Shown piece by piece: positions 7,278 to 24,752 of a DNA stretch of 64,000 nucleotides. The first letter of the stretch is position 1. Each line of letters begins with the position of its first letter. The notes beneath the pieces were generated by a model, which saw only the letters and a list, made by a program, of their open reading frames with translations, made no database searches and had not been told where the DNA came from. This stretch comes from Cellvibrio sp. 79 (GTDB lineage Bacteria > Pseudomonadota > Gammaproteobacteria > Pseudomonadales > Cellvibrionaceae). A program made the translations under genes and the position numbers. The stretch is taken from the NCBI GenBank assembly GCA_003056245.1, contig MVDH01000001.1:158794-222793 (forward strand). Reading direction: 5' to 3'.

Positions 7278-7595
7278 CTACTTCCCCATTTGCTTTTTAA
7301 GATGCAAATCGATCCTGTTGATAACATTCACAATACTATTAAGCACTACCGAAGGTAATTTCACATCACCTTCGATTTTATCGAGCAATACTTCCAGCAA
7401 GCAGGCCTGGCACCACAATTGGTAAACAGTATCTTCATTTGTGTTGTTGGGTATTGGCCAGGCGATTACGGTAAGGAATTTACCTTCGGGGGAATGAATT
7501 TCAAGTCGAGAATGTTTGTAAGCTTCGTATTGAAATTGATCGAGCTTAATAATGCAGGGGAGTGGAGGAGCAGGAAGGGAGCTCGTATTATCCAT
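7278..7595 (-). CDS. Hypothetical protein downstream of a structured leader
   Basis: 105-aa frame from Met14; bounded by a terminator downstream and a structured leader upstream. Confidence 0.5.
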   Translation of the reverse strand: MDNTSSLPAPPLPCIIKLDQFQYEAYKHSRLEIHSPEGKFLTVIAWPIPNNTNEDTVYQLWCQACLLEVLLDKIEGDVKLPSVVLNSIVNVINRIDLHLKKQMGK

Positions 7596-7636
7596 AATAA
7601 AAATCTCGTTGAATTGGGTTTTAACCGACCCCATAA

Positions 7637-7730
7637 GGTGAGACTTTTTGGGGGCGGACTGAGCAGGGGTCTCACCACCGGTCCCAATTCAACACCGGCC
7701 CGCCCGAAGGCGGCCCCGCCCAGCCGCCAT
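7637..7730 (-). ncRNA. c4/Ash-type structured RNA leader (candidate)
   Basis: Minus strand: ggcggctgggcgggg pairs with cccctgctcagtccgcc, enclosing a ccgcc-TTCG-ggcgg hairpin and a ccggt...accgg stem; alternative ggtgagac...gtctcacc stem. Confidence 0.45.
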
Positions 7731-7772
7731 AACATCAGGCAAAGCTGTACGAGGACACGTAATGTAGCGCGG

Positions 7773-8324
7773 ATGTATCATCCAAAACTCGGACGCTTCT
7801 TGCAAACGGATCCGATTTTTTACGCAGACAATATGAATATGTATGCGTATGTGGGAAATGATCCGGTTAATTTAAAAGACCCAACAGGCATGTGCCCTGC
7901 CTGCGTTATTATTGTTGCGCGTGAAGCATTAAAGAAATCCGCTCAAGAGGCAGCAAAAAAGATAGCGCAGGAGGCGGCGAAGAAAAAAGCAAAAGAAGAA
8001 GTTAAGGACGCTGCCAAAGGTAATGGTCCTAAACCAAATGGTGGTGATGCAAAACCTCATGGAAATGAAAAGCATAATAATGCTATTGACAAAAAGGTCG
8101 ACGAATTAAAGAAAGATCCTTCAGTGACCAATATTCGAAAAAATCAACAACAAGTCGATAAAGACGGTAATAAGGTAGGTACCAACAGACCTGATGTTCA
8201 GTACGATAAAGATGGCTGCCACCATTGTGTAGAATACGATAACGTTCCTAAAAATAGTGAAAACCACGGAACTGTCATTGGAGCTAATGACCCTGATGCG
8301 GTAATTGAATTAAATTTACTGTGA
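7773..8324 (+). CDS. Orphan Rhs core C-terminus with toxin domain (putative PD-(D/E)xK-like nuclease)
   Basis: RMYHPKLGRFLQTDP...YAYVGNDPVNLKDPTG Rhs-associated core and DPxG junction, then a C-terminal domain with NRPDVQY...VEYD. No YD repeats upstream. Confidence 0.85.
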   Translation: MYHPKLGRFLQTDPIFYADNMNMYAYVGNDPVNLKDPTGMCPACVIIVAREALKKSAQEAAKKIAQEAAKKKAKEEVKDAAKGNGPKPNGGDAKPHGNEKHNNAIDKKVDELKKDPSVTNIRKNQQQVDKDGNKVGTNRPDVQYDKDGCHHCVEYDNVPKNSENHGTVIGANDPDAVIELNLL

Positions 8325-8332
8325 ATTAATTT

Positions 8333-8776
8333 ATGAACAATGAGATATCAACACTTTTAAATAAGCTTGATGGTTCTGGATCTGATTCAGAATACAAGGC
8401 TGTGGATGAACTTAGGCAGCTGGGTAATCAATTGCCGGCTCTGTTATATCAAAAATATAAACAGTCTAAAAAGTGGGGGCAAAGGGCATCCTGTCTTTAT
8501 CACTCAACCCGATATGCTAGAGATGTGGAAGATGCTGTGATGTTGGGAGTTCTTGCGCTAAATGATAAGTCAAAAGCAGTGAGATACCGTGCGTGTATGC
8601 TTTTGGCTTATTCACTTAATTTGGAAGTGCTTCCTGCTCTTGAGCAAGCGAAAATATCAACAGATAGTGAAACATTAAAAGATATAAATGCTGCGATAGA
8701 TGCTATCAAACATCAAAATAGCAATTATTTTGTTGATCGATCTCATTCTGGCAAGATTAGTTTAAATGTTAATTAA
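8333..8776 (+). CDS. HEAT-repeat protein, putative Rhs immunity
   Basis: Starts 8 nt after the toxin stop; HEAT-like ALNDKSKAVRYRACMLLAY. Confidence 0.7.
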   Translation: MNNEISTLLNKLDGSGSDSEYKAVDELRQLGNQLPALLYQKYKQSKKWGQRASCLYHSTRYARDVEDAVMLGVLALNDKSKAVRYRACMLLAYSLNLEVLPALEQAKISTDSETLKDINAAIDAIKHQNSNYFVDRSHSGKISLNVN

Positions 8777-8796: not shown

Positions 8797-9037
8797 AACC
8801 CCGGCCAGCATGCTGCCCGGGGTTTTGTTTTTATAAGCGTTTGAGTTTGCCCGTCACTCCGCCGTCAACACCAAGCACCCCCTGCATGACCCGAATCGTC
8901 ATCGGCGAATCAATGTTGAATCCCGCCTGCTCCAACCAATGCCCTTTCAGTTACAACCAGGGCACGGTGGCCTGTGGCGGGTACTATGTCTTTCGCCGGT
9001 AGTCGTAAGTGATGCACCCGGTCTTGATCCTGCGAAT
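8797..9037. repeat. ~240-bp direct repeat, copy 1 (terminator hairpin plus symE 3' part)
   Basis: Aligns by eye to 9791-10030 with scattered substitutions and one 1-nt indel. Confidence 0.95.
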
Positions 9038-9079
9038 GTGACAGGGTGGTGTTGCTTGCGTAGAATCGCGTCTAGCCAT
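8854..9079 (-). pseudogene. symE: SymE-family type I toxin pseudogene
   Basis: MARRDST...RKT*YPPQATVPWL*LKGHWLEQAGFNIDSPMTIRVMQG; two in-frame stops and a +1 frameshift before CLVLTAE*; RBS AGGAG. Confidence 0.85.
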
Positions 9080-9171
9080 TGTTGACTCCTTCTTAGTCAG
9101 TGGTGGTTAGCTGGTCATGGGTGTTAGCGCACCTTTGGCCAGCGTCTTTGTAAACCTGTTTAAAATCCCCG

Positions 9172-9399
9172 TTAAGGTAAAAAAGCGCGTTTCGCGTTGT
9201 GCTTGAGAATCAGACTTTCCAGCACCGCCTTGGCCACTTTGCGGTCTTCCTCATCAAACTGGCTGAGCGCTTCAAACTGCAACCGCAGTTCATCACTTGG
9301 GCCTCGTGCATCTTCCCCAAACACCAACACATCAAGGCTGGTATGCAGCTCTTTAGCCAGTCTTGCCAGCGTATCTAACGTAGGCTGTGCTGTTCCCAC
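9172..9399 (-). pseudogene. 5'-truncated XRE-family regulator
   Basis: GTAQPTLDTLARLAKELHTSLDVLVFGE is the end of an XRE HTH domain; the N-terminal helices are missing. Confidence 0.75.
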
Positions 9400-9506
9400 A
9401 GCAAATAATCCTAATCACTGTACTATGTGTAATATTTCTGCGCAGAAAGCAGAAGAACTTTTTACTCCTACAATAAAGAATCCAAGCAAATAAACTGAGC
9501 AGCCTT

Positions 9507-9770
9507 ATGAAAATTAAAAAATCTTATCTCGAAGAAATTAAGAGTCGCCTCGCGAGCGCGTCTCCAGGGGCTTGGGTTTCTTACGTGGAAGGACGTGATC
9601 ATACATCGGGATGCAATTTTATTATGACTGGTGTTGGAGGGGTGAGAGGACAAGATATTGAGTTAAGTGGCGCGACTAACTCAGATCAAGATTTTATAGC
9701 TCATGCTCGACAAGATATTGAAGTTTTAATAAAAATTCTGGAAGGAAATAATTTAGTGGATGATGACTAG
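9507..9770 (+). CDS. Hypothetical protein, probable orphan immunity protein
   Basis: 87 aa with ASPGAW...DQDFIAHARQDI pattern; same position relative to repeat copy 2 as the HEAT gene to copy 1. Confidence 0.6.
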   Translation: MKIKKSYLEEIKSRLASASPGAWVSYVEGRDHTSGCNFIMTGVGGVRGQDIELSGATNSDQDFIAHARQDIEVLIKILEGNNLVDDD

Positions 9771-9790
9771 ATTGGGCAATTAAATTATCT

Positions 9791-10030
9791 AACCCCGACC
9801 AGCATGCTGGCCGGGCTTTTGTTTTTATAAGCGTTTGAGTTTGCCCGTCACTCCGCCGTCAACACCAAACACCCTTGCATCACCCGAATCGTCACCGGCG
9901 AATCAATATTAAATCCCGCCTGCTCCAACCAATGCCCTTTCAGTTACAACCAGGGCACGGTGGCCTGTGGCGGGTAGTGTGTCTTTCGCCGGTAGTTGTA
10001 AGTGATACACCCGGCCTTGATCTTGCGAAT
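9791..10030. repeat. ~240-bp direct repeat, copy 2
   Basis: Near-identical to 8797-9037. Confidence 0.95.
9848..10030 (-). pseudogene. symE: Second SymE-family pseudogene, 5' truncated
   Basis: IRKIKAGCITYNYRRKTHYPPQATVPWL*LKGHWLEQAGFNIDSPVTIRVMQGCLVLTAE*. Confidence 0.85.
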
Positions 10031-10137: not shown

Positions 10138-11520
10138 TTAGGGCGAGTTATTGGCCTCACAGCCAATGGCTATAAAAATATTATTTTGTGCATCCGGTGC
10201 GGTAAGGCAGCGCAAGTTGATTTTGGATACGAGTAGCAGTTCGGAATCAAAATAGCGCAGGTTTATTGTCTGGTTATTCAGTTGATCTACATTTTTAAAG
10301 CGTAACTTGGGTGCCCATGTCAGGGGCGAGGTGCTTTCGCTGGTATAAATGGCAACGAATAGTTCTTGTTTTAAATAATTAACCAAAGCGGAATCAAGTG
10401 CAGTGGTAAGGTTGGTTGATTCTGCCAATACAATGGCACCAGTGGATATTGCCGAGGAAACAAAAGCCTTAATGGTAGTTTCATCCCAGCGGGTTGTTCC
10501 TGCCGATATCTGTGTATCCAGGTTGGCCAGCAAGGTTTTCCAATTGATAGTTATGTTTGTTGTACTTACATTGGTTTTGGATAATGGCCAATTAAAGTAA
10601 AGCTGCCAGGTATGTTGTAAATCCCCGTCGGCAGTTGACAATATCCGATCAAATTCACGCGTGCCGGGCAGGGTGTAGTCAATAGCCAATGTGCCGCGCA
10701 AGGATTTGTTGCCTGAAATAGCTTCAGGATCAAAATTCAATGCTTCGTATCTAAAACTGCCGATATTGTTAATCGTTTGCGGGGCAATTATTTCGTCTTT
10801 GTCGATCAGATTGCAATCGTGCAACGTGACCGCATTGCCATTGATAAGCAGCGTTAAATTTTTGCATTGAATTTGTACGCGTGCTGCAGGTACTACAGTT
10901 GTGTACCGCTGTTCCAGCTGTATCGCTGGTGGTTTAACCTTAACATCTGCAAGTTGGGTAAAACCTGCTGCTTCACTCTCTTGCTGCAGTTTTTGCAGAT
11001 CAACATCCAATGTAAATCTGCTGGAAAACGTGAGTTGATTGGTTGAATACCAATCTGTACTGCTGAGATCCAGAAACATTTTCAATAAATTGGAAACTTT
11101 ATTGGTGCGCTGCACCGAAGCAACACCGGGCAGTCCTGTTAATGCCAATTGTTTTGGTAAATAGTGTAATACTTGTGGTTCTGTTGGATCGGAAAAAACA
11201 TAAAAATATTCGTTGGTTATTGCAGTAAATTGGCTGCTGGCATCAATTAGCTGGCCTTGGGGTTTAGTTGATGAACTGCTGGAAGAAGTTATGACCTGAC
11301 TTGAGGAAATTGATGTTTGCACACTACTTGAGGAGCTCGGCAGCCCCGGTGAACTCATAGTGCTGATCGAGCTGGCGATACCAGGCGCACTGCTGGCATC
11401 GCTTCTAGTGCTGCCGCTGTTACCGCCTCCCCCCCCGCAACTAACCAACATTAAAAACGAAAGTGTGAGTGTGGAAAATCGACTAACCGAAAATAGGTTG
11501 GTGATAGCAAGCGAGTTCAT
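10138..11520 (-). CDS. Lipoprotein with Ser-rich linker and a domain of an unnamed family (paralog C)
   Basis: Lipobox LVSC, then a Gly/Ser-rich linker; shares motifs with 13828-15081 and 15177-16445. Confidence 0.85.
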   Translation of the reverse strand: MNSLAITNLFSVSRFSTLTLSFLMLVSCGGGGGNSGSTRSDASSAPGIASSISTMSSPGLPSSSSSVQTSISSSQVITSSSSSSTKPQGQLIDASSQFTAITNEYFYVFSDPTEPQVLHYLPKQLALTGLPGVASVQRTNKVSNLLKMFLDLSSTDWYSTNQLTFSSRFTLDVDLQKLQQESEAAGFTQLADVKVKPPAIQLEQRYTTVVPAARVQIQCKNLTLLINGNAVTLHDCNLIDKDEIIAPQTINNIGSFRYEALNFDPEAISGNKSLRGTLAIDYTLPGTREFDRILSTADGDLQHTWQLYFNWPLSKTNVSTTNITINWKTLLANLDTQISAGTTRWDETTIKAFVSSAISTGAIVLAESTNLTTALDSALVNYLKQELFVAIYTSESTSPLTWAPKLRFKNVDQLNNQTINLRYFDSELLLVSKINLRCLTAPDAQNNIFIAIGCEANNSP

Positions 11521-11764
11521 TCTGGTCCTTCTCTTTTGTTGGCGCAGCCATTGATTAATTCGGCTTTTTGCGGGTTTCTTTTGGGTGATGTCGTGGGAAA
11601 CAGGTTAAAACTATTTCAATTTATTGCCTGCAAGATCTGTCGTGCTTAGTTACGCTAACATGGAAATTTTATAGCTTCCATGTGGCAAGTAAATTACGTA
11701 TGAGATTGCTAACACCTTCACAATGAGTGTCGCCTTAATCGCCAGACTGAAAACATCCAGATTA

Positions 11765-12892
11765 TTAAGGCCCTGTCGCGAGGGGTTGTTGCGCACAAAA
11801 TTTCTTAAGGTCCCGGTCGGGACAGCCCATATTAATCCAGGTCGCTAATACAGTAATTGCCGTGAATGAAAGCGGCTTTCCAGTCATGGGCATACCGGGC
11901 TGTTCCGCGCCTATCCCCACTTGTTGTTCCGCGTGGCGTATTAGTAATCGGTTCACCAATTGTTGCGGGTCATTGTTTTTTAACCAGGTGACAATACCCT
12001 GGGTTGAAGTATCAAATTTTTCGGTGGCGCGGCCGCCAATGGAATGGCAATGAACACAGCTCCCATCGCGCCAAAATTTTTGCCACATATAATTAATTTC
12101 AGATACGGGTAACGTTGTATTTTTATTCTGGAAGTTGGCGATATATTTTTTTGCCAATGTATCTACCTCTGCTTCTTTCTCTATCCGGATGGATTGAAAA
12201 TAAGCGTGTAGATATTGGCTTTCGTCCTTGGTAATTGCAACTTGGGGCATGTTGCGATTTTCTTTGGTTATATTTTGATTGTTAGCGTAACGATAAATCC
12301 AATCAGCAGAAAACAGGCTCATCGCAGCAGGGTTGTAGCGCGATGGATCGCTTGATGCGTGGCAACCGCTACATTTGTTCTGGAATAGGCTCTTTCCAAG
12401 TTTGCTATGTTTCCTATCGTTGGGGTTATTGGTATCAAATGAATGGGTTTTTTTTAAGCTCGGGTAAGCCATCATCAGCGGCGCGGAGCAAACTCCGCTA
12501 GCTGCGCAATAGCCATGCGGGCGCCGTAGGAAATTGGTTAGGTTTTTTTCATCTGTCCTGGTATGTCCTGCTGTTGTTATAGGATCGAAGTGAGCATTCA
12601 AATAGGGTAAAGGATCGCGTTCCATGCGATTAATACGATCATCAGAGATGGGCAGGGAGGAAAAGCGTTCGTCTTGCTTTCCTTGCTGGTGAATGGTGGC
12701 GACTTCTGTCAATTCATTATGGCAACCGAAACACTGGGCGTTTTCCCAGCGACCGAATCCAGTCGGGAATTTTTTTTCTACATGAGTACGCGATGAAAAA
12801 TGGCACTCTGAACATTCCTGGCTGTTCGGCAACACTATCGCCATAACAAACTGGCAACTGCAAAAAATCATGCACACCAAAAACCGTAACAT
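11765..12892 (-). CDS. Exported tetraheme c-type cytochrome
   Basis: Signal peptide; four CxxCH motifs (CSECH, CFGCH, CSGCH, CVHCH); distal MP motifs after the third and fourth. Confidence 0.88.
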   Translation of the reverse strand: MLRFLVCMIFCSCQFVMAIVLPNSQECSECHFSSRTHVEKKFPTGFGRWENAQCFGCHNELTEVATIHQQGKQDERFSSLPISDDRINRMERDPLPYLNAHFDPITTAGHTRTDEKNLTNFLRRPHGYCAASGVCSAPLMMAYPSLKKTHSFDTNNPNDRKHSKLGKSLFQNKCSGCHASSDPSRYNPAAMSLFSADWIYRYANNQNITKENRNMPQVAITKDESQYLHAYFQSIRIEKEAEVDTLAKKYIANFQNKNTTLPVSEINYMWQKFWRDGSCVHCHSIGGRATEKFDTSTQGIVTWLKNNDPQQLVNRLLIRHAEQQVGIGAEQPGMPMTGKPLSFTAITVLATWINMGCPDRDLKKFCAQQPLATGP

Positions 12893-12908
12893 GTGACTCC
12901 CCGTTTAT

Positions 12909-13757
12909 TTACAGTATTGTATTTACGTTAACGATTTCTTCCCGTACTGCAGGAACCGATAAAAATTCATTGCTCGCATTAAGCTGAACTTTTAACGTTT
13001 TTCCGGACAAGGTGAAAGTGTTTAAAAATAATTCCCATGCTTTAAATGTAATGGGTGCTGAACCCGTTTCGCCAAACAAGCTGGAAGGTAGTTGCGCTGC
13101 GTGGTAAGTAACAGCAGACAGAGGTCCCTGGTAATTATTTAAACTATCTTTTTGCAGCGCACCGAGGCTATTAAGCTCAAACAGGATGTCAGAAAAGCTA
13201 ACGTTGATCGCGGGCGACAGTTGCTCTTCGATGCGAAACGAGAGTGAGATAACACTATTGGCTGTAAGGTAATCTACCAGTGACTTTTCCTGTGCGCTTT
13301 GCGCCGTTGTAACGTAACGAATGATTAACGAACAGGCTCTGGGATAGCTGCCACCCAACAATACAGTGGTGTAAGCTAATCCCAATTCCGATATTTTTCG
13401 TCTGGCTTCTGTAGATAGTTGGCAGAGTGTTGCATCAGCCGGAATGAGATTTTTTCTATTGTCCAGAATACCGTTATCCAGAATAAATTGATTGTGTTCT
13501 GCGGAATTAATTGCAGTTGGATTTAGCATCAGGGAAATTGATCGCCAACCCGTTGCGTAATTGATTGGTGTTGAAACTGTTTTTTTGTAACGAGTGTATA
13601 AAAATGACCCTTGCCTGTCGCTGCCAGTTATTGGTAGAAAAATAAAATCACTGAATATTTTTCGCTTTTCCAGATCATAACCGGACAAGTCTGCACGGCT
13701 ATTCAATGAGATCAGCGATACAACCATTGCACAACAAAAAATCATCAGCTTTTTCAT
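12909..13757 (-). CDS. Exported hypothetical protein
   Basis: Sec signal MKKLMIF...SRA; RBS AGGAGG; 16-nt gap to the cytochrome gene. Confidence 0.8.
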   Translation of the reverse strand: MKKLMIFCCAMVVSLISLNSRADLSGYDLEKRKIFSDFIFLPITGSDRQGSFLYTRYKKTVSTPINYATGWRSISLMLNPTAINSAEHNQFILDNGILDNRKNLIPADATLCQLSTEARRKISELGLAYTTVLLGGSYPRACSLIIRYVTTAQSAQEKSLVDYLTANSVISLSFRIEEQLSPAINVSFSDILFELNSLGALQKDSLNNYQGPLSAVTYHAAQLPSSLFGETGSAPITFKAWELFLNTFTLSGKTLKVQLNASNEFLSVPAVREEIVNVNTIL

Positions 13758-13771
13758 AAAACCTCCTGCTT

Positions 13772-13800
13772 AAAAAAAGGAAGCGGTTGCCCGCTTCCTG
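13772..13800 (-). terminator. Intrinsic terminator inside the cluster
   Basis: Minus strand aggaagcgg-gcaa-ccgcttcc followed by a T7 run. Confidence 0.85.
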
Positions 13801-13827
13801 AGTATTAATGAGCAATATTTAATGAGA

Positions 13828-15081
13828 TTAAATACCGAACAACGCTTTGCAGTTAGGCGCGGTAGAGGCAACTACAGGCGTACCAAAACCGCCGGTCAAG
13901 CAACCAACAAACATGTCAGTACGAGCGGTTTTGATGACAGGACCCGGGTTGTAGTTGAATACGCGAGTTTCATTTACGCTAAATATTTGCTTCTCGTAGT
14001 TAGCGCGCAAGGTGAAAACGGCACTTGCCTGACGGCTCACATTTGGTAGGTTGGGCTGTGCATAGCTGGTCATTTCGGCAAAAATTTCATTGCGAATTTC
14101 ACGCTCAAGTGCAGCTACCGCACCCACAAAATCTGAAGCATTGGGTGCATTCAACACCCATTGGTTATTGGCATTAAGGTATTCCACTTTAATACTGCCA
14201 TCGCGCACCAGGCGCTGGAAGAAAGTAGATACTTCTATATCCACACAAGCCCAGTTATGGATAGCGGCAAAAGTGGTGGCCTTTTCAAATACCTGGTTGT
14301 AATTGATGGTGAAACGCGCGGTGCGAGTAATGGAACTGGTGGGAATTTCCCAGTCCACTACGGCAGAGAGCGATTCATCAAAGTTTGCACCGGAGGCCAG
14401 GTTTGATGTCACCGAATTAGTGTAATCCGGAGTGGTTTTTGCCTGGAATGGAATACTGGTAGATACCGACGTTTGTCCGGTAGGAACCAGCGCGGTAAAT
14501 TTCTGGATGGTATCTACTTCTTTAATAGTGCCATCTTCATAAACCACTTCGCACTTTGGCATGGAAACTTCCGTGGTAACACCTGTCACCGGATTAGTGA
14601 CCAACAGCTTGGTAGTAGTACAGTTTGCGTGCAGTTTTCCATCGGTATCCAGGCCGCTCACAATAAATTTAGTGGTGGCTTTTTTAGCTTGCGCTGGCGC
14701 AATTTGCACACCCAGGCTGTTTGCCTCATTTTGCAATTGTGTACGTTGTGGAGCAAAACCAGCGGTAGAAAATGAGCCACCTAACACCGCAACAGTTTGC
14801 CCGGCAAAAGCGCCACTAAATTCAGTGAAATAATTTGCGTTAAAACGTGGAACAGGGTTGGACGGAGTGCCTAGCATGGCAACGGAACCATATTTGGGTA
14901 CGTACCAAACCAATTTATTGTTATCACTGTCTGCATACAATTCAAAGTTGGCGAGCACCTCTGCACTAAAACGAACGGGTACAGGTTTTTGCTCGGGGGC
15001 AACCGGACTTGCATTGGCAAGCATCGGCAAAGTTATTGCAGAAGCTAACGCAACCATATGAGCTTTCTTGGTGAAATTCAT
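13828..15081 (-). CDS. Exported protein of an unnamed family (paralog B, putative major subunit)
   Basis: Signal peptide ending LANA; RBS AGGAGG; motifs shared with paralogs A and C. Confidence 0.85.
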   Translation of the reverse strand: MNFTKKAHMVALASAITLPMLANASPVAPEQKPVPVRFSAEVLANFELYADSDNNKLVWYVPKYGSVAMLGTPSNPVPRFNANYFTEFSGAFAGQTVAVLGGSFSTAGFAPQRTQLQNEANSLGVQIAPAQAKKATTKFIVSGLDTDGKLHANCTTTKLLVTNPVTGVTTEVSMPKCEVVYEDGTIKEVDTIQKFTALVPTGQTSVSTSIPFQAKTTPDYTNSVTSNLASGANFDESLSAVVDWEIPTSSITRTARFTINYNQVFEKATTFAAIHNWACVDIEVSTFFQRLVRDGSIKVEYLNANNQWVLNAPNASDFVGAVAALEREIRNEIFAEMTSYAQPNLPNVSRQASAVFTLRANYEKQIFSVNETRVFNYNPGPVIKTARTDMFVGCLTGGFGTPVVASTAPNCKALFGI

Positions 15082-15176
15082 AAAACATCCTCCTGGTTTT
15101 GGTTGGTGAATTGCACGGAATGTGCACTATTATTACCCCTCCTTAGAGAAGTGAATAATTCTTGTGGAATGCTGGT

Positions 15177-16445
15177 TTAGCGCAGATATTTACAGCGTGG
15201 ATCGGAAGCGTTCCAAACCACTTCACTGTCAATATCCCCAATTACACATTGAATGCTCAAGTCGGTGTAAGCGTAGATATCACTAGTGTTGTTGCGCTGA
15301 TAAAGTGAAAAGGTCTGGATGGGAGTTTCGAATAATTTTTTATAATCGATATTGAGTGTGTAAAAGCGTTTTGTCGTGGCTGCACCTGGTGATTTGGCTT
15401 CAACAATAATTAGTGATTTGCTTTTTGCTATACGTAAAAGTTCGTGCGCGACATTTTCCAGTAGTGGCAGATTAGGGTTCCACCAAGGGCCCAAGGAATA
15501 ACCTGGTGCTAATTTGATTTTCACAGTATTGGCGAGGCGAGTATCGTTAATTATGCGCACTGCAAGTAAATAAGCATCTTGTTCGGTAACTACATAATTA
15601 AGATCGGCCATGTATTTCACCAGCGCACTATAAAAATCAATCCAGTCAATAGTGACTGTCGCAATTTCAATGCGTTTGCCATTATTGATGTTCCAGCGCA
15701 ATTGCCCGGAAAAAAAGTTATCCCAGCCAGCGCCTGAAGCCAGCACCTCGGAAACCAGAGGGGAAATTTGGTTGAAGGCTTTTGCATCGAACGCAAGTTG
15801 TTGCTGCGTATTACCATTTTTATCGATGATTGATGAATCCAGCGCATAGATACTTTGTAATGGCCTGATGGTTCCGCTTTGGTCCATTGCACTGCAGCTG
15901 GGAAGGTTTATGTTGGCACCATTAGGTAATGTGACTTGCAGGAAGGTGCAATAGGGTTGAATCTTTCCACTTGCGTCAGTTACAAAACCATCTGCAATAA
16001 AAAAAGTTTCTGCATCACTGATAGGTGCTGGACTTAGTGTTAAGCCAAGTTTTTTTGCTGTGGCTAACAGATAAGCCAAATCTGTTTTTGCTCCAGTGGA
16101 ATCAAATGTGCCATTGATTTTTATATGTTCTGCTGGAAAATACGGCTCATTAGAGAGGCCTGAAACAACTTTTAAATTCACAACATTGGAGCCAGTCCTG
16201 GGAGCAATACCTGCTTGCTTGACAACGTAATATCCCAAATTGACGTCGCTGGAGTCAGCAAAAAAAGCGTATTTTTGTTGTAGGTCAATAGGGAATTTAC
16301 TGTTGAGATCTTTGACAGCTGGTGAGACAGGGAAGGCATAAATATTCCCTGATATACTAAAAAATAACGAGAGAAAAATTAAATTTTTAAAAAAACAGAA
16401 AGTGGCCAACAAACGCTTTTTAATAATGATAGATTTGTTACTCAT
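15177..16445 (-). CDS. Exported protein of an unnamed family (paralog A)
   Basis: Signal peptide ending NIYA; RBS AGGAG; motifs shared with paralogs B and C. Confidence 0.85.
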   Translation of the reverse strand: MSNKSIIIKKRLLATFCFFKNLIFLSLFFSISGNIYAFPVSPAVKDLNSKFPIDLQQKYAFFADSSDVNLGYYVVKQAGIAPRTGSNVVNLKVVSGLSNEPYFPAEHIKINGTFDSTGAKTDLAYLLATAKKLGLTLSPAPISDAETFFIADGFVTDASGKIQPYCTFLQVTLPNGANINLPSCSAMDQSGTIRPLQSIYALDSSIIDKNGNTQQQLAFDAKAFNQISPLVSEVLASGAGWDNFFSGQLRWNINNGKRIEIATVTIDWIDFYSALVKYMADLNYVVTEQDAYLLAVRIINDTRLANTVKIKLAPGYSLGPWWNPNLPLLENVAHELLRIAKSKSLIIVEAKSPGAATTKRFYTLNIDYKKLFETPIQTFSLYQRNNTSDIYAYTDLSIQCVIGDIDSEVVWNASDPRCKYLR

Positions 16446-16856
16446 CGCGAAACACTCCTTGCTAAAGAAAATTATTAAAATAATCGATCCAATAAAAACA
16501 ATTGACTGTAAAAATTTTCCGTTAAATAGCGTGCTGTCTGTTCTTTTTTTAATCTATCGCATAAAAAAATACATTTCTATCTATTTAAATGACACGTGTG
16601 TTTGGCAGCTGTGGATTATTTTTTGATTCATTTTTTGTAAAAAAAATATCATTGCTATTTTATAAAATGACTGATTTGAGAGGTTGATTTAGAGACAAGT
16701 ATTGGCGCAACAAATATTCTATTGTCACCTTTTTAATGAAATAGCGTTTTGGTTTGTTAGGGAATAATCAGGCTGGGGCAGTTGGAGCTGCCAAAATATT
16801 TGCTAATCATTTTTTCGAATTAATAGGTGGGTTGTGTGCGCTTTTTTGAAATCAGG

Positions 16857-18323
16857 CTATTGTTTTGCGCTGAGGCTGAGTGTGGGTAACCAAATGGAAA
16901 CATTTAAACCATGCCCGGGCCTATTTGCAAAATGAATGCGTCCATTATGGGCTTCAATAATTTCGCGACAGAGTGCCAAGCCTAAGCCAGCGCCATCACG
17001 CTTGGTGGAATAGAAGGGCAGCATCGCCTGTTTTAATTGCTCTTCACTCATGCCACTGCCGTCGTCACTAATGGAGATCATATCCCAACTGCCTTGTGGT
17101 TTTATTTCCAGAAAAACTCCTTCCTCACTGGCACCGGCTTCGCGCGCATTTTTAATTAAATTGATTAACACCTGTGCGAGTTGTGCCGGGTCGGCAAAAC
17201 CCGCGCGCGGGGCGTGATTATTATCCCAGCGAAAATAACTTAACCCTTGTAAGTTAGTTAAAAAAGCGAGCCAGTTGATTGGCTCGCGTGCCGGGGTTGG
17301 CAAACGTGAAAATTGTGCATAGTCGCTGAGGAAGTCGCGCAGGTGTGTTGCGCGTTCCTGAACGGTGGTAAGGATTTTTTGTAGTAAATCCTGTTGTTGA
17401 GTCGGCAGAGTTGATTGCTGGATCAACTGTAAACCGGAATGTGCGAGTGAGCTTACCGGAGCTAATGAATTATTTAATTCATGACTAAACACCCGAATCA
17501 CTTTTTTCCAGGTGTCTACTTCGCTACGCGCGAGTGCGCGAGTTAACGGCTGGAAGTGATATAAACAATGCTCGTAACCATGCAATTGAAATCGCTCACA
17601 AAATAGATACCAGCTTTCTGTTTCTCCATTTTGTGTTAGTGAATGTTCGCCGGTGTCCGTTCCTGGAATTTCACCGTGTTGTGCTTCCGGCTTCTCTTTA
17701 CTATGCGCTTCCGAATACGCTGCCATTTGTACATTTGATGTGTTTTTTCCGATGTGATCATATTTCATTTTTTCCAGCGTAAACATCAGGTTTTGTTGCT
17801 GCATAATTGATTCTTGCACAGAGATTGGCATAGTTGCTACCAAATCCTGCAGGGATAGTCCACGCACCGGTTTCCCTTCATTCAATAAATGTCGTGCAGT
17901 TGGGTTACACAACACAATTTTCTGGCGTGAATCGGTTAATACGAGTGCAGATGAAACCGTTTCGAATACGCGGTTTAACATTAAATCTCGCTGCAACAAG
18001 TGAGTTTGGTTTTCACGCAGATTGCTAATTACCTGATTAAACAATTGGCCAAGCTGATTAAATTGTGGAGTTTGTTGTTCTGGCACCTGTAAGGAAAATT
18101 CACCATCCTTTAAATGCAACAGCGCAGATTCCAGGGTTTGTAAAAACCTGTCGAAAGGTTTCGCGAAGATGCGGTAACTCAACCAGGTGATAGACACCAG
18201 TACTAAAAAACCACAAATTATTGCGGCTATTTTGTTTGGAAAATAATTATAAACCAACAGCCCGGAGCCAACTGCAAGGCAGTTGCCTATAGTCAAGGCG
18301 ATTAGGCGGAATGAAAAACTCAT
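16857..18323 (-). CDS. Sensor histidine kinase (HAMP-PAS-HisKA-HATPase)
   Basis: Two N-terminal TMs, FSHELNNSL H-box, NLIKNA N-box, DDGSG and GAGLGL G-boxes. Confidence 0.95.
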   Translation of the reverse strand: MSFSFRLIALTIGNCLAVGSGLLVYNYFPNKIAAIICGFLVLVSITWLSYRIFAKPFDRFLQTLESALLHLKDGEFSLQVPEQQTPQFNQLGQLFNQVISNLRENQTHLLQRDLMLNRVFETVSSALVLTDSRQKIVLCNPTARHLLNEGKPVRGLSLQDLVATMPISVQESIMQQQNLMFTLEKMKYDHIGKNTSNVQMAAYSEAHSKEKPEAQHGEIPGTDTGEHSLTQNGETESWYLFCERFQLHGYEHCLYHFQPLTRALARSEVDTWKKVIRVFSHELNNSLAPVSSLAHSGLQLIQQSTLPTQQQDLLQKILTTVQERATHLRDFLSDYAQFSRLPTPAREPINWLAFLTNLQGLSYFRWDNNHAPRAGFADPAQLAQVLINLIKNAREAGASEEGVFLEIKPQGSWDMISISDDGSGMSEEQLKQAMLPFYSTKRDGAGLGLALCREIIEAHNGRIHFANRPGHGLNVSIWLPTLSLSAKQ

Positions 18324-19810
18324 GGTCTGTTCACCGGATCATTGTCAGGTTTGTTGCAAGACCGAGTTGATTGGTTGTTTGAGTTGTCAGTGGAGTTGCT
18401 TGCCGAACTGTTGGTGGAAAAATTCGCGAAATTGCCGTCCCCATGCTGTAACAAATTATTTTCCGGGTTTGTAACAAAATAAGCATCCGGATTGATGCCA
18501 TATTTTTCCATGCGCCTGTATAGGGCTTGCCGGCTGAGGCCGAGTTGTCGTGCTGCTTCGGCAATGCTGGTGGTCTTCACTAAACAGTGGCGCAATTGTT
18601 CTTCACTTGGTTCAAATAACGGGCGATTTTTTATTTTTTGTTGTGGCAATTGCAAATCGCCTGCTTCAATATTGTGGGAACTGGCGAGCAGGCAGGCGCG
18701 TTGAATGGTGTTTTGTAATTCACGCACGTTGCCGGGCCAATCATAAGCTTCCAGGGTGCGCAATGCCTCGGGGGTTATCGGGCGACCCTGCAAAAAATGG
18801 CGTGCGAGAGGCAGGATATCGTCTTTGCGTTCCGCCAGTGCCGGTGTGTGCAACTCAATAACATTCAAGCGGTAATATAAATCTTCGCGAAATTTACCTT
18901 GTGTAATTGCTGCGGGTAAGTCGGTATTGGTTGCGGCAATAATCCGTACGCGTGCACGGCGAATCTGGCTGGAGCCCAAACGCTGGAATTCGCCGGTTTG
19001 TAATAAGCGCAACAATTTCATTTGCCCGGACAATGGCAAATTACCAATTTCATCCAGAAATAAAGTACCGCCATGGGCTTGTTCAAAATGACCAACACGG
19101 GTGTGTTTAATGCCGGTGTACGCACCCGCTTCAGCACCAAACATTTCCGCTTCCATCAAGTCTAGCGGCATAGCCCCCGCATTCAGCCGAATAAATGGAC
19201 CGTTTTTAATAGACGAGTTACGCTGGATAATTTCTGCAATTTTCTCTTTGCCGGAACCATTAGGTCCGGTAATCAAAATAGGTACATCAGCTTTGGCTAC
19301 ATGCACAGCGGTGGATAGTAATCTATGCATTGCATCGGATTGGTAAACGACACCCGCCAAATCAAAATTGTTTGCCAGTTTTTCTCGCTGTGTTGCGCGT
19401 TCCGCCAGCAGCGCGCGATGCTGAAGCGAAATTTCATCCAGCTCTAGCAAATTATTGACAGCGGATAATAACTTCTGGTCATCCCAAGGCTTTGCGAGAT
19501 AATCAGCAGCACCGGCCTTTACCAATTCCACCGCACTGGCTAAATCGGCCCAGCCGGTTAATAAAATAATTGGTAAGTCGGGGTTAATGGCGCGCGCGGC
19601 ATAGAAGAAGCGTTTACCTTCTTCGCCACTGGTGGTTTCCCGCTGGAAATTCATATCGGCAATAACCAACGAGACAGCTCCTTGTCTAATCAATTCCAGT
19701 GCATAGGAGGGATATTCGCTGGTAATACACGGCAAACTGTTTAAGGAAAATAATATTTGCAATGACGTCAGCACTGCTGGATTGTCATCGAGTACCAGAA
19801 TATTAGTCAT
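18320..19810 (-). CDS. Sigma54-dependent (NtrC-family) response regulator
   Basis: Receiver domain, GPNGSGKE Walker A, GAEAGAYTG (GAFTGA-like loop), FLDEIG, WPGNVREL, Fis-type HTH. Confidence 0.95.
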   Translation of the reverse strand: MTNILVLDDNPAVLTSLQILFSLNSLPCITSEYPSYALELIRQGAVSLVIADMNFQRETTSGEEGKRFFYAARAINPDLPIILLTGWADLASAVELVKAGAADYLAKPWDDQKLLSAVNNLLELDEISLQHRALLAERATQREKLANNFDLAGVVYQSDAMHRLLSTAVHVAKADVPILITGPNGSGKEKIAEIIQRNSSIKNGPFIRLNAGAMPLDLMEAEMFGAEAGAYTGIKHTRVGHFEQAHGGTLFLDEIGNLPLSGQMKLLRLLQTGEFQRLGSSQIRRARVRIIAATNTDLPAAITQGKFREDLYYRLNVIELHTPALAERKDDILPLARHFLQGRPITPEALRTLEAYDWPGNVRELQNTIQRACLLASSHNIEAGDLQLPQQKIKNRPLFEPSEEQLRHCLVKTTSIAEAARQLGLSRQALYRRMEKYGINPDAYFVTNPENNLLQHGDGNFANFSTNSSASNSTDNSNNQSTRSCNKPDNDPVNRP

Positions 19811-19842
19811 AAATGCCGTGCGCAAAAATTATTATGTAGGAA

Positions 19843-21051
19843 TTATAAAGTACGCGTTGCCAGGCTGGGTGATATTTTCCCCGCCTGCAATGCAGGTATG
19901 GCAGCGCTGAGCAAGCATACTGCAAAAATGCCGGCGACTGTACCCAATAAAAACCAGGGTGAGAGTGCGATAATTTCCGTGGTTGTATAAAAGAAGTGGC
20001 TTAGCAGCATAGCTAATGCAGCACCTGATACCAAACCTATGGAAACTATTGCGGCATTTTCCAACAAAATTTGTGCGATGAGTTTTGCACGCGTAGCGCC
20101 CAATGCACGCAAAACACCCAATTGTTTGCGCCGTTGGTGCACGGAAAAATACGCTTGCCCGGCGATGGCGATAATAGAAGCGATCGCTAATATCACTGTA
20201 ATAAGATTAACTAATGCCACTGTGCCGCGGTTCATATACTTGCTCACAATAGTATCCAGTTTGTCAGCATAGAAAATCAGCCCTTGCGGGTACTGTTGCA
20301 TAAGGTATTGTTCAACTGCCTGAATTACCGCTGTGCGGATCTCGGGTGACTGGGTGCGAATCAGGTAGCGAAATTCATTATTCGTTTCATTGTATTCCGG
20401 AAAAAATGCAGTGGATTCGGAGCGATAAATTTGTGGGGAAAAACCCATCCAATCGGACATCACACCAATAATTTCATACTGTTTATCTTTTTCATAAACC
20501 ACTTTGCCGACAGCGTTATTATTTTCCCCGAAAAGGGCCTTGGCCAAGGCCTGGGTAATGATGGTGACTTGAGGGTGCGATCTATAGGTAAACGTCATAT
20601 CACTGTTTTCAAATTGGCGCCCCGCCAATAAACGCAAACCGAGAGTGTCCAATGCGTTGGGGGATACATTGCTGCGGACAAATGCAATCCGTTCATTATT
20701 TTGCTCCTGTGTAGTATTGAAGCCTCCGGTTCTCAGGTTGTATTCATGGTCAAGTGGCGTTGCATCAATACTGGCTACATCAATTACACCGGGAATGGCT
20801 TTGATTTTTTCCAGGTCGCGCAATCCATCTGCCAGTGCAATACCTTTTGTTCCCGCTGGATTACGCAGGGTAAAGCAGATCAGGTGTGTATCATCAATTC
20901 CGGTAGGCGATTTATAATAATTATCCAATTCGTTAAGAATATGCGCCAGGTTGCTGATCAACATTGTAATCAGTGCAATTTGCAAACCCAGCAATGCCAC
21001 AGTCAGTTTTTTTCGTAATAACGGTTTCAATATCGGAGGTAGCGAAAACAT
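19843..21051 (-). CDS. MacB/FtsX-type ABC transporter permease
   Basis: Large periplasmic domain; RRKQLGVLRALGA motif; C-terminal TMs. Confidence 0.92.
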   Translation of the reverse strand: MFSLPPILKPLLRKKLTVALLGLQIALITMLISNLAHILNELDNYYKSPTGIDDTHLICFTLRNPAGTKGIALADGLRDLEKIKAIPGVIDVASIDATPLDHEYNLRTGGFNTTQEQNNERIAFVRSNVSPNALDTLGLRLLAGRQFENSDMTFTYRSHPQVTIITQALAKALFGENNNAVGKVVYEKDKQYEIIGVMSDWMGFSPQIYRSESTAFFPEYNETNNEFRYLIRTQSPEIRTAVIQAVEQYLMQQYPQGLIFYADKLDTIVSKYMNRGTVALVNLITVILAIASIIAIAGQAYFSVHQRRKQLGVLRALGATRAKLIAQILLENAAIVSIGLVSGAALAMLLSHFFYTTTEIIALSPWFLLGTVAGIFAVCLLSAAIPALQAGKISPSLATRTL

Positions 21052-21129
21052 GTTAAATACCTTTGGTAACGCGGCGTTGTTAATTTTCTATCGCGCTATT
21101 TACGTTAGATGTTATGTGAATTAAATATT

Positions 21130-22491
21130 TCACTGAATTTTTAAATAGTTCGCAGCGGGAACCTTGCACGCCCGCCAAGCCGGGTAGAGCCCTGCACAAA
21201 TACTCGCGGTAATGGCAGTTAGCACACAGATTGCCATTAAATAAAAATCGGGTGTCATTAGCACCGTGTTGTCTTGCACAGGTAAGCCGTTCGCAGGGGC
21301 CGGAGCAGATTTCCATACCAGTTGCAGATACAACAACCCTGCAAACGTCATTACCATACCCAACACCGCGGCAATGCTGCCAAGCGCAGTGCTTTCAATA
21401 AGATGCTGCGCAAAGATCACTCGACGATTTGCGCCCAGCGCACGCCTTACTCCGGATTCTGGCAACGCGCGCATAAATTTTGCCAACAAAAGTGCGACAA
21501 AATTTAATGTACAAACCAATAAGGTAAAAAACCCGATGTAAATGGTTGTTTTATCCTGGTCATAACCCTGTTGGTTGAGCTGCATGTAATCGCCAATGCT
21601 CGACAATGCAAAACGTGTCGGGCGAGGATAGTTGCCTACTTGTTTTTGATCCTGAATATAGTTGCGGACAAAATCCTCAAATTGGTTTTTTTGTGCTGTG
21701 CTAGCAAATTCATACCAAAGGCTAATCCAGATACAGCTATTGATCAGCCGTGGTTGATACCAATGGGAACCATAATCGCGTAAGTCTTGCGGGCATTCGT
21801 ACCTTACCCACGCCCCGAATTCAGCCGCCTTTATTACCGAAAAAGGAATATAAAATTGTGCATCCGGTTGCGGCCAGCGAAATTGCGCAATGTCATAGGT
21901 GGGGTTGCTGTGCGTCACTTTTTTAGTGACACCTACAACCTGATATTGGATGTTTTCGTAGATCACACTTTTGCCGAGGCTATTTTCACCATTAAATAAT
22001 TTTTGGTTAACGTCTTCATTAATAACAATCACATTTTGAAATTGCTGGTCCGCTGTTGCGTTCCAGGTTGCACCATAAATAAATTCGCGTTCAAACATGG
22101 AAAAGAAGTCGCGGGTAACGATATTACCGCGTACAAAAATGGCTTTTTGCTGTATCTCCGGATTGTGCATGGAGCCGCCCCATTTGGTAATCGCGGTTTT
22201 CCGCAAAGGAATGTCGCTGGCAAGTAGCGCAATGCTGTCGCGATAGCTATGCAAGGGCGGTAAGTGGTTGGGGGTTCCCTCGTATTGATTTTTTTCGTCC
22301 CAGGAATCGGTTTGCAATAAAAATAAGCTGTTATCTTTGTGTGCCAGCGGATTTTTCTTCAGGTGATAGTAATGGGTGTAGCAAATAGTGGTAACGGCTA
22401 CCCCCGTTGCTAGTATAAAAATCATCACACTGCTCAGGATCGGCGTTTTACGAATTGCACGCAGCGCCAATTGACATTGATACCAAAACAT
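21130..22491 (-). CDS. MacB/FtsX-type ABC transporter permease
   Basis: ESGVRRALGA motif; LYPAWRA C-terminus. Confidence 0.92.
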   Translation of the reverse strand: MFWYQCQLALRAIRKTPILSSVMIFILATGVAVTTICYTHYYHLKKNPLAHKDNSLFLLQTDSWDEKNQYEGTPNHLPPLHSYRDSIALLASDIPLRKTAITKWGGSMHNPEIQQKAIFVRGNIVTRDFFSMFEREFIYGATWNATADQQFQNVIVINEDVNQKLFNGENSLGKSVIYENIQYQVVGVTKKVTHSNPTYDIAQFRWPQPDAQFYIPFSVIKAAEFGAWVRYECPQDLRDYGSHWYQPRLINSCIWISLWYEFASTAQKNQFEDFVRNYIQDQKQVGNYPRPTRFALSSIGDYMQLNQQGYDQDKTTIYIGFFTLLVCTLNFVALLLAKFMRALPESGVRRALGANRRVIFAQHLIESTALGSIAAVLGMVMTFAGLLYLQLVWKSAPAPANGLPVQDNTVLMTPDFYLMAICVLTAITASICAGLYPAWRACKVPAANYLKIQ

Positions 22492-22515
22492 AATTTTTCC
22501 TTTAAGTAATATTCC

Positions 22516-23238: not shown

Positions 23239-23287
23239 TGATCCTACTCTTCCTGTTTGCATTATTTTAGATTTTGCAGTTAACAAA

Positions 23288-24735: not shown

Positions 24736-24752
24736 AGCAGTAGCAATGCCAA
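24736..24752 (-). promoter_or_regulatory. Sigma54 promoter of the exporter/two-component operon
   Basis: Minus strand TTGGCATTGCTACTGCT, exact GG-N10-GC spacing, ~80 nt upstream of the start codon. Confidence 0.7.

Follow-up and report, generated by a model that had tools for sequence, protein, structure and literature searches.

A recurrent cassette of exported proteins and a tetraheme c-type cytochrome in Cellvibrio and other bacteria: a tentative extracytoplasmic redox complex

In the periplasmic SoxXA/SoxYZ and TsdA systems a dedicated c-type cytochrome oxidatively forms a sulfur-sulfur bond on a conserved cysteine of its partner. MauG and MbnH are heme-c enzymes which modify their respective partner proteins, MADH and MbnP, post-translationally. 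In Cellvibrio japonicus, the electron-transfer proteins Cbp2D and Cbp2E are secreted or lie at the surface and are linked to carbohydrate-binding modules. The locus described here is found in a stretch of 64,000 nucleotides of Cellvibrio sp. 79 (contig MVDH01000001.1, positions 158,794 to 222,793), referred to as the window. As judged from sequence comparison it is a cassette of a previously undescribed type, whose proteins resemble nothing characterised apart from generic cytochrome c matches.

Genes of the cassette and their relationships

The cassette is composed of five intact genes on the minus strand, all present as open reading frames where the first-pass annotation had placed them. N-terminal signal peptides, seen by inspecting the translations, bear out the claim that all five products are exported. 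The features are, in window coordinates:

16446..16856, minus strand: intergenic region upstream of gene A, presumed promoter region of the cassette (411 bp, GC 0.31)
15177..16445, minus strand: gene A, 422 amino acid exported paralog of B without the motif of B (open reading frame; BLASTP against B, E 5e-22)
13828..15081, minus strand: gene B, 417 amino acid exported founder of the family (open reading frame, homologue searches, dN/dS, AF2 model)
14239..14259, minus strand: H-x3-C-x-D codons of B, H275-N-W-A-C279-V-D281 (translation check)
13771..13799, minus strand: hairpin with a run of seven T in the B/X gap, candidate terminator or attenuator (scan)
12909..13757, minus strand: gene X, 282 amino acid exported protein of a second unnamed family (open reading frame, orthologues after B)
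11765..12892, minus strand: gene for a tetraheme c-type cytochrome, 375 amino acids, exported (open reading frame, CxxCH motifs, Pfam)
10138..11520, minus strand: gene C, 460 amino acid lipoprotein, distant paralog of B (open reading frame, hhalign)

Comparison with Cellvibrio relatives showed purifying selection on all five genes (dN/dS 0.015-0.19), which are therefore real. B is the most constrained (dN/dS 0.015-0.056), with a dN of 0.011 versus 0.066-0.283 for its neighbours, and C is the quickest-evolving (dN/dS 0.18-0.19). Constraint as extreme as that on B would be expected if the protein were a catalytic or core subunit, but not if it were a toxin or an exposed antigenic subunit. The block had been placed in an AT-rich accessory region, and only the second part of this description stood. 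Its GC content of 0.436 against 0.454 for the window falls at the 21st percentile among 6.3-kb windows, and AT-richness is confined to the 411-bp intergenic stretch 5' of A (GC 0.311); the block is present in just three of 37 same-genus species genomes, and its chromosomal site varies between strains.

The absence of a recognised family was likewise upheld, since A, B, X and C have no match in Pfam, NCBIfam, PADLOC, PHROGs or PDB sequences and folds. For A this holds for both Pfam and NCBIfam, for X for fold as well as sequence in the PDB, and none of 15 members of the X family matched Pfam. The anti-phage defence and phage models of PADLOC and PHROGs gave zero matches for all five proteins. 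Pfam and NCBIfam revealed no pilin, usher or sortase in the five genes or their neighbours, no match of the cassette proteins to Sox models (SoxXA/SoxB/SoxZ and the GGCGG arm of SoxY) and, together with the fold search, no chaperone signature of known type at the cassette.

The proposed paralogy of A, B and C was confirmed by BLASTP, a family profile and hhalign. A and B share 23% identity over their full length (E 5e-22), and the B-family profile matches A at E 7e-140. C has a BLASTP match to A (E 1e-3) and no significant one to B; a whole-genome search with the B-family profile recovers it at E 4.9e-5, and hhalign aligns the C and B families over 322 columns (probability 97.4%, E 1.6e-11). 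By these comparisons the body of C is related to B over its full length, as a distant paralog. The H-x3-C-x-D motif is absent from both A and C. By inspection, C carries a predicted lipobox LVSC (residues 25-28), which fits the pattern [LVI][ASTVI][GAS]C; GGGGG and a Ser-rich linker of about 60 amino acids come next. C28 is invariant in five orthologues. Orthologues of C are found in L012-L014, L001 and L034. The arrangement of one anchored and two soluble paralogs, which had suggested a hetero-oligomeric surface assembly, is real in the Cellvibrio type, is seen in L034 and is modified in Agarilytica, but is not universal. Myxobacterial loci have a single B and neither A nor C, so that a three-paralog hetero-oligomer cannot be an essential feature.

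Distribution of the B-X-cytochrome triad

Homologues of the cassette genes co-occur strictly in other genomes, as expected of a recurrent unit, and no match of the cassette to a described system was found. The universal unit is smaller than the five genes first suggested, the conserved core being the triad of B, X and cytochrome only. A B with H-x3-C-x-D, then X and a four-heme cytochrome on one strand, is shared by the window and over 15 loci from at least five lineages. All loci of sufficient length from Cellvibrio, Agarilytica, Pseudoalteromonas, an Oligoflexales MAG, Myxococcus, Corallococcus, Archangium and others show this order, as do the divergent loci L030, L034, L036 and L041. Orthologues of X lie directly 3' of B across loci and the X family is found only in this context; X is thus the constant partner of B, apart from L040, where B and the cytochrome are present and X is missing. 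A lipoprotein is encoded nearby in each type, being C in Cellvibrio, a 108 amino acid protein in myxobacteria, whose gene overlaps the start of the cytochrome gene, and a 205 amino acid protein in L037.

The families of B, X and the cytochrome are all very rare; a first search yielded 21 clusters of B homologues, and 81 clusters were found at 50% identity among 1.84 billion representatives. The cassette is horizontally mobile and self-contained. Its hosts include predators (myxobacteria, Oligoflexales) and polymer degraders and, to our knowledge, all hosts found are aerobes without known metal respiration. In the window the locus adjoins orphan Rhs-toxin and immunity genes.

The hairpin between B and X has a 9-bp stem with six GC pairs, and hairpins of unrelated sequence occupy the equivalent position in Agarilytica, L034, Pseudoalteromonas, myxobacteria and L030. 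Its conserved position after B implies higher output of B and A than of X, the cytochrome and C.

The motif of B and the tetraheme cytochrome

The H-x3-C-x-D stretch, at an internal position, is the most conserved segment of B. It is carried by 38 of the 54 full-length members of the B family, and among B-type members H275, C279 and D281 are each at least 89% conserved. Where C279 is lacking (14 members), D281 is present in none and H275 is retained in 21%. A CxxxC arrangement, with Cys in the place of His275, is seen in P0027 of locus L028, where the cytochrome is not adjacent, and in Aga722, an extra paralog.

The cytochrome gene is adjacent in 23 of 24 loci with a B carrying the motif and in none of the three loci without such a B (Fisher p 0.0014; 0.009 once collapsed to lineages, the test resting on few independent lineages). 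Genome G061 contains both situations, two motif loci each with a four-heme cytochrome and two motif-less loci with none. In L035 motif-bearing B genes and X are found, and the cytochrome is absent from the remaining 0.9 kb of the contig. The cytochrome family occurs in this cassette alone. Among the options which the first-pass annotation had listed, a redox-linked complex gains support from this exclusiveness and from the presence of the cytochrome following the motif of B. The link between cytochrome and His-Cys-Asp site, as it emerges from locus comparison, points to an undescribed extracytoplasmic redox machine.

The four heme motifs of the cytochrome (CSECH, CFGCH, CSGCH and CVHCH) are invariant across 15 orthologues. 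The protein is composed of an N-terminal paired CxxCH region and two class-I-like domains with a conserved Met (M215, PGMP). M140, M334, C357, C366 and the PGMP motif are invariant in the orthologues, and no invariant His outside CxxCH is present among the 15. That the conserved candidate distal ligands are Met only, with no extra His, suggests high-potential hemes. From its Pfam scores, Cytochrom_C 33.7 bits (cut-off 21.3), Cytochrome_CBB3 29.3 (27), Cytochrom_c3_2 26.6 (25) and Paired_CXXCH_1 23.0 (20.6), it is classed as a multiheme c-type cytochrome matching generic models only. The best PDB profile match is ActA of ACIII, at E 2.5e-4 and over a single domain. Named subfamilies such as CcoP, c4, NrfH, CctA and ActA were rejected, the NCBIfam equivalogs scoring far under their cut-offs (ccoP 17.6 versus 180), as was a CCP/MauG di-heme peroxidase (no Pfam CCP_MauG; NCBIfam CytoC_perox 15.8 bits versus 150). 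Mtrc-MtrF_II-IV reached E 0.15 and 12 bits against a cut-off of 30.

The AF2 model of B (pLDDT 70.8) predicts sheets mixed with long helices and no closed barrel; that of X reaches a pLDDT of 88.8. The motif region of B is poorly modelled (pLDDT below 50 at residues 276-290). B has five cysteines, four of which form two conserved pairs, and lacks a C-terminal aromatic residue. The aerolysin, MACPF, CDC, pilin and tail-tube folds, suggested earlier as comparisons, found no backing, as Foldseek of B against the PDB gave nothing significant (best E 0.09, TM about 0.1); with a model of such moderate quality the absence of a fold match is weak negative evidence. Pfam domains of aerolysin, MACPF, CDC, ETX/MTX2 and leukocidin type were found in none of A, B, C or 17 family members. 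Some B-family paralogs carry fused Calx-beta, discoidin/NedA-like or WxxW (Mucin2-WxxW) domains, with a NedA-like galactose-binding domain on one Agarilytica paralog. The tail of one B-family paralog looks GlyGly-CTERM-like by eye.

Possible functions and comparison with known systems

Our tentative reading, with a probability of roughly 0.35, is that the cassette encodes a redox complex outside the cytoplasm, tethered to the membrane, whose cytochrome serves B at its His-Cys-Asp site. The complex would be located in the periplasm or at the outer membrane, with B as its beta-rich exported core protein, with two disulfides and bearing the B-type-specific His275-x3-Cys279-x-Asp281 site, which may hold a metal or act through a redox-active cysteine. 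The dedicated tetraheme cytochrome would exchange electrons with this site and link it with the electron pool of the periplasm, and X may be a small exported accessory subunit without a known fold. To the Cellvibrio version the site-less A and C would have been added, A soluble and co-expressed with B, C tethered to the membrane through its lipid anchor and long Ser-rich linker; most likely these two are non-catalytic scaffold and anchor subunits. Several points count against a redox complex. In neither B nor X can a cofactor-binding fold or a second or third metal ligand be recognised, and one His/Cys/Asp cluster by itself makes a weak case for a metal site. The poorly modelled motif region, the missing cytochrome in L035 and the missing X in L040 count against it as well. 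The excess of B implied by the hairpin would be unusual for a stoichiometric enzyme-cytochrome complex, and the fused Calx-beta, discoidin/NedA-like and WxxW domains with the GlyGly-CTERM-like tail suggest extracellular target binding, which fits an adhesin or toxin logic too. A more far-reaching version, possible but speculative, is a new class of extracytoplasmic redox system, in which a protein of new fold bears a novel His-Cys-Asp centre that a dedicated high-potential tetraheme cytochrome creates or services. The system would have spread by horizontal transfer among predators and polymer degraders, with site-less paralogs recruited as membrane anchors. If this is true, the centre could be a metal site of a new kind, a cofactor derived from cysteine or an oxidatively formed protein cross-link.

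A hairpin that keeps its position but not its sequence across lineages is typical of operons where the gene of a major subunit precedes those of minor or assembly proteins, and supports a rather unlikely alternative. B and A would form an abundant structural or secreted product, for instance a surface polymer, coat or filament, anchored by C, the cytochrome being a low-copy maturation enzyme oxidising Cys279 and X a periplasmic chaperone. Oxidation of Cys279 could yield, for example, an intermolecular cross-link or a Cys-derived modification. One anchored paralog beside two soluble ones, the odd number of cysteines in B (five, with four in two conserved pairs) and the presence of the cytochrome only where B has the Cys site are all in keeping with such a polymer, and so are the two CxxxC proteins, one without an adjacent cytochrome and one an extra paralog. 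An anchored heteropolymer is however not universal, myxobacteria having one B and no paralogs; the extreme conservation of B (dN/dS 0.015) is unlike that of exposed fibre subunits, and pilin, usher, sortase and known chaperone signatures are missing.

It is improbable that the B family represents a novel toxin with several components, pore-forming or otherwise membrane-active, or else an adhesin, directed at prey, grazers or competitors, with lipoprotein or lectin-like paralogs for targeting and the cytochrome as activator or incidental. The predatory (myxobacteria, Oligoflexales) and polymer-degrading hosts, the paralogs fused to binding domains and the Rhs-toxin and immunity genes beside the window locus would suit it, and the low-confidence helical inserts between the strands of the B model could be refolding segments. 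The alpha-hemolysin-family matches scattered in the Foldseek output are however noise (probability at most 0.06, TM about 0.1, rmsd about 25 Å), pore-former Pfam domains are in none of the 17 members, no immunity-like gene was identified, and B is most conserved at H-x3-C-x-D, while the membrane hairpins of pore-formers are poorly conserved. We know of no precedent among such toxins for a strictly co-inherited dedicated cytochrome. A porin-cytochrome conduit for extracellular electron transfer of the MtrCAB/PioAB kind, with A/B as barrel, the cytochrome inside and C as surface lipoprotein, is very unlikely. The likeness of layout (a periplasmic multiheme cytochrome, beta-rich exported proteins of about 420 amino acids, an outer-membrane lipoprotein) is superficial, given only four hemes, an MtrC/MtrF domain far under cut-off (E 0.15), a B model with no closed barrel, two conserved disulfides and no C-terminal aromatic residue, family members with C-terminal soluble domains, a C that is not a cytochrome and aerobic hosts of which metal respiration is not known to us. 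Even less credible, and largely refuted, is an 11-gene system in which the five genes would be cargo or clients of the adjoining MacB-type ABC exporter and sigma-54 two-component system. Strand and adjacency are shared in the window and in a 98%-identical MAG locus (L012), but the linkage is found in no other lineage. Exporter and regulator genes were rejected as members of the unit, the cassette occurring elsewhere in Cellvibrio without them: L014 sits after flgI-J-K-L, and G020 has the cassette and no kinase orthologue. The sole sigma-54-like site lies upstream of the MFP gene, with no -24/-12 match on the coding strand upstream of A.

Set beside known systems, the putative redox complex has partial counterparts only. 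With MtrCAB it shares an exported multiheme cytochrome, beta-rich exported proteins and an outer-membrane lipoprotein, but it has four hemes and not ten, no predicted barrel, a heme-free lipoprotein and an insignificant Mtr score. Multi-component beta-PFT and CDC-like pairs resemble it in their paralog sets, one member being lipid-anchored, and in the lectin-like domains of some members; the cassette differs in having no Pfam or fold match, a dedicated cytochrome and a strongly conserved key segment. Cbp2D and Cbp2E come from the same genus, and the NedA-like galactose-binding domain on the Agarilytica paralog resembles their binding modules; the cassette has however no YceI, no CBM2 and no known sequence relation to them, and is also found in predators which do not degrade plant cell walls. 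The Sox and TsdA systems offer a functional analogy only, that of a small beta-sandwich partner possibly needed in excess of its catalyst. There is no relation in sequence or fold, B has no GGCGG carrier arm, the cassette cytochrome has four hemes and no conserved Cys/His distal ligand, SoxB/SoxCD genes are absent and the hosts are not known as sulfur oxidisers. The cassette cytochrome falls outside the CCP/MauG family, and B and X are unrelated to MADH and MbnP, but the MauG-MADH and MbnH-MbnP pairs are alike in that an exported c-type heme protein is encoded beside its exported oxidation target, and in that the special residues of the partner are found only where the heme enzyme exists.

Composition of the cassette and its protein families

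The cassette is composed of five ORFs in the same orientation, present exactly as the first-pass annotation had listed them.

Genes of the cassette (window coordinates)
Gene A: 16445..15177, minus strand, ORF, 422 aa
Gene B: 15081..13828, minus strand, ORF, 417 aa
Gene X: 13757..12909, minus strand, ORF, 282 aa
Cytochrome gene: 12892..11765, minus strand, ORF, 375 aa, with the heme motifs CSECH, CFGCH, CSGCH and CVHCH
Gene C: 11520..10138, minus strand, ORF, 460 aa, with the lipobox LVSC followed by GGGGG and a Ser-rich linker of ~60 residues

In agreement with the export signals proposed for all five products, an N-terminal signal peptide is recognisable by eye on A, B, X, the cytochrome and C. 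A and B are paralogous over their full length (BLASTP E 5e-22, 23% identity). C is far more distant from both, with a BLASTP similarity that is only marginal; it was recovered from the whole genome by a profile of the B family (E 4.9e-5), and profile-profile comparison of the C and B families gave a probability of 97.4% (E 1.6e-11, 322 columns). On the BLASTP evidence for A and B and the profile evidence for C, the description of the three as paralogs is correct. X is not a cryptic fragment of B (hhalign probability 2.8%). Comparison with Cellvibrio relatives shows purifying selection on each of the five genes, with dN/dS from 0.015 (B) to 0.19 (C), and B evolves 6 to 25 times slower than the neighbouring genes. 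The assignment of the block to an AT-rich region does not hold: its GC content is 43.6% versus 45.4% for the window, and AT-rich sequence is limited to a stretch of 411 bp upstream of A (GC 31%).

The statement that A, B, X and C belong to no recognisable family is borne out by the searches. None of the four has a match in Pfam, NCBIfam, PADLOC or PHROGs, and Pfam matched none of 17 B-family and 15 X-family sequences searched member by member. The cytochrome is matched in the family libraries by generic cytochrome c models alone, with no named subfamily in NCBIfam or the PDB sequence profiles; the PDB sequence-profile search gave no match for B and X and, for the cytochrome, only generic cytochrome c. 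AlphaFold2 models of B (pLDDT 70.8, pTM 0.59) and X (pLDDT 88.8) were built from alignments and compared with the PDB and, for B, with the viral library BFVD. With Foldseek neither model has a match in the PDB at E <= 0.001, a result which for B fails to support the suggested pore-former fold; the alpha-hemolysin-family entries in its list are noise, given their probability of <= 0.06 and TM of ~0.1. The only near-significant structural match of B is a single marginal one in BFVD, an uncharacterised Medusavirus stheno protein with the same length of 417 aa (E 1.7e-3, probability 0.93, TM 0.20), which is uninformative and may be due to chance. Relatives carry, without exception, the public names "hypothetical protein", "lipoprotein" or "cytochrome c". 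In the sources consulted, the families of A, B, X and C have neither a name nor a solved or matched fold.

Distribution, gene order and genomic neighbourhood

The cassette is a genuine unit that recurs between genomes and moves horizontally. The block is present in 3 of 37 species genomes of the same genus, and close loci are those of Cellvibrio MAGs. B is represented by 21 clusters in a collection of 5.8 billion proteins and by 81 clusters at 50% identity among 1.84 billion representatives. The cytochrome and X families are equally rare, their matches being solely full-length orthologues, and the cytochrome family is restricted to the cassette.

The order B, X, cytochrome is found in Cellvibrio, Agarilytica rhodophyticola (131-kb record), Pseudoalteromonas sp. 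MSK9-3, an Oligoflexales MAG, the myxobacteria Myxococcus, Corallococcus, Archangium and Cystobacter, and a record labelled Comamonas sp. KCTC 72670. This unit is tightly co-inherited, is held by strong purifying selection and has spread across phylum boundaries. Recurrence of the whole five-gene set holds for Cellvibrio and the homologous locus L034; elsewhere the three genes are accompanied by lineage-specific additions.

Gene order at homologous loci
Cellvibrio and L034: A-B-X-cytochrome-C
Agarilytica: B paralog of 722 aa with a fused NedA-like galactose-binding domain, followed by B-X-cytochrome-C
Pseudoalteromonas and locus 1 of genome G061: B-X-cytochrome-B paralog
Myxobacteria: B-X-108-aa lipoprotein-cytochrome-RCC1 lipoprotein, the small lipoprotein overlapping the cytochrome start
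L030 (distant locus): paralog-B-X-cytochrome

The RCC1 lipoprotein which follows the three genes in the myxobacterial loci L003, L007 and L015-L027, where flanking sequence is present, has 746 aa and 14 RCC1 repeats (two propellers), and is 65-71% identical between genera; in Archangium sp. (L017) extra RCC1 genes and a second, divergently oriented B are found. L030 (contig MDTC01056417.1 of GCA_001757045.1) lies beside three large Sel1-repeat proteins, and its B, of 742 aa, carries an Asn/Pro/Gln-rich repeat tail.

Upstream of A, at 16857-24751 on the minus strand, lies a separate accessory module. It encodes an HlyD-type MFP, an ABC ATPase and two permeases of the MacB/FtsX type, together with a sigma-54 response regulator of the NtrC type and a PAS histidine kinase; no close orthologue of the kinase is present among 24 further genomes of the genus. 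The only sigma-54-like site, the -24/-12-like sequence TGGCATTGCTACTGCT at 24751..24736, is upstream of the MFP gene, and no sigma-54 promoter is found on the coding strand upstream of A. The MacB-type exporter and the sigma-54 two-component genes adjoin the cassette solely in the window and in a 98%-identical MAG. They are ruled out as part of it by the location of the site on the MFP side, by the locus L014, where the cassette follows flagellar genes, and by the genome G020, which has the cassette and no kinase orthologue. Directly downstream of C, at 7419-8776 (plus strand) and 8797-10030, is a variable, conflict-type neighbourhood: the C-terminal toxin tip of an orphan Rhs protein (YHPKLGRFLQTDP...DPTGM junction) is followed by a small gene and then by short repeated fragments. 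At a distance of 5 kb from the cassette there is a GH18 chitinase gene (4192-5334, minus strand; Pfam Glyco_hydro_18, E 8.5e-73), for which the other loci showed no conserved linkage.

The His-Cys-Asp motif and the cytochrome

In an HMM alignment of 54 full-length B-family members, 38 are of the B type, with H275-x3-C279-x-D281 and F318. C279 is absent from 14 other full-length members, including A and the proteins of locus L029; the motif is also absent from C and several other paralogs, which are not full-length in the alignment. As four of the five cysteines of B fall into the conserved pairs C154/C177 and C394/C411, C279 is unpaired. The only residues co-varying with it are H275, D281 and F318; a Cys-Gln thioester is ruled out, since no Gln co-varies.

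Every locus with a cytochrome has a motif-bearing B. The cytochrome is absent from L028, L029 and L038, where no B-family gene has the motif; L029 consists of B and X, with both the His and the Cys changed to Asn. Within the single genome G061, a 4-heme cytochrome is part of each of two motif-bearing loci and of neither of two loci without the motif. The pairing was found as predicted in L041 (B-X-cytochrome) and L040 (B-cytochrome). The exception is L035, a contig of 4.4 kb with motif-bearing B genes and X and no cytochrome in its last 0.9 kb. A cytochrome is adjacent in 23 of 24 loci with the motif versus none of three without it (Fisher p 0.0014, or 0.009 collapsed to lineages). Because the lineages are few and related, these sequence comparisons are only suggestive of a cytochrome presence that tracks the motif.

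The B family is diversifying within genomes. The four B-family loci of G061 (record CP048878.1) are L036, L037, L029 and L038, and they include a strongly diverged cassette, in which a B-like gene (HNGFCMD) and two unknown genes are accompanied by those for a lipoprotein of 205 aa and a 4-heme cytochrome of 406 aa. In P0027, the B-family protein of L028 (positions 673-2439), CxxxC replaces HxxxC and a Calx-beta domain is fused; its C-terminal end, GGGSEWFLGILLGLGFFRRALRR, resembles by eye a GlyGly-CTERM/rhombosortase-type sorting tail.

Beyond the heme motifs, the invariant residues of the cytochrome include M140, M334 (in PGMP), C357 and C366, while M141, M215 and M336 are near-invariant and no His outside the heme motifs is invariant. 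With this pattern of Met and His, His/Met ligation is likeliest, and the hemes would therefore be of high potential. Some B-family members carry Calx-beta or Mucin2-WxxW domains, and the tail of one is Gly-rich, hydrophobic and Arg-rich, resembling by eye a GlyGly-CTERM sorting signal; together these features point to a probable surface or extracellular location of at least some paralogs.

Possible functions and relation to described systems

The reading best supported, to which we give a probability of roughly one in three, is a new extracytoplasmic, membrane-tethered redox module. In this reading the task of the dedicated cytochrome would be to service the His-Cys-Asp site of B; the paralogs A and C, lacking that site, would provide scaffold and anchor, with X as an accessory subunit. 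In its main rival, which we consider doubtful, B would be an abundant structural protein and the cytochrome a low-copy maturase acting on its Cys279. Between B and X there is a strong hairpin with a T-run, and hairpins of unrelated sequence recur at the same place in Agarilytica, L034, Pseudoalteromonas, three myxobacterial loci and L030, which suggests that production of B, and of A in loci that have it, probably exceeds that of X, the cytochrome and C. Such a putative attenuator would fit a maturase better than a redox module, but the extreme conservation of B fits it worse. A toxin, with little positive support, is unlikely, and a porin-cytochrome system, for which the positive evidence is equally small, very improbable. 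About a quarter of the probability falls to functions beyond these.

A cytochrome restricted to the unit and tracking one motif puts a concrete biochemical question in place of "function unknown", the H-x3-C-x-D site and its cytochrome being a specific, testable handle on function. The cassette lies outside every described system within reach of our searches, and a full-text search of the published literature found no description of it. Were it merely a rare, lineage-specific set of surface proteins, its interest would be modest. Should the site turn out to be a metal centre of a new type, a cofactor derived from Cys or a protein cross-link driven by heme, the bacterial cell envelope would gain a new kind of chemistry, and a trait common to predators (myxobacteria, Oligoflexales) and polysaccharide degraders (Cellvibrio, Agarilytica, Pseudoalteromonas) might be explained.
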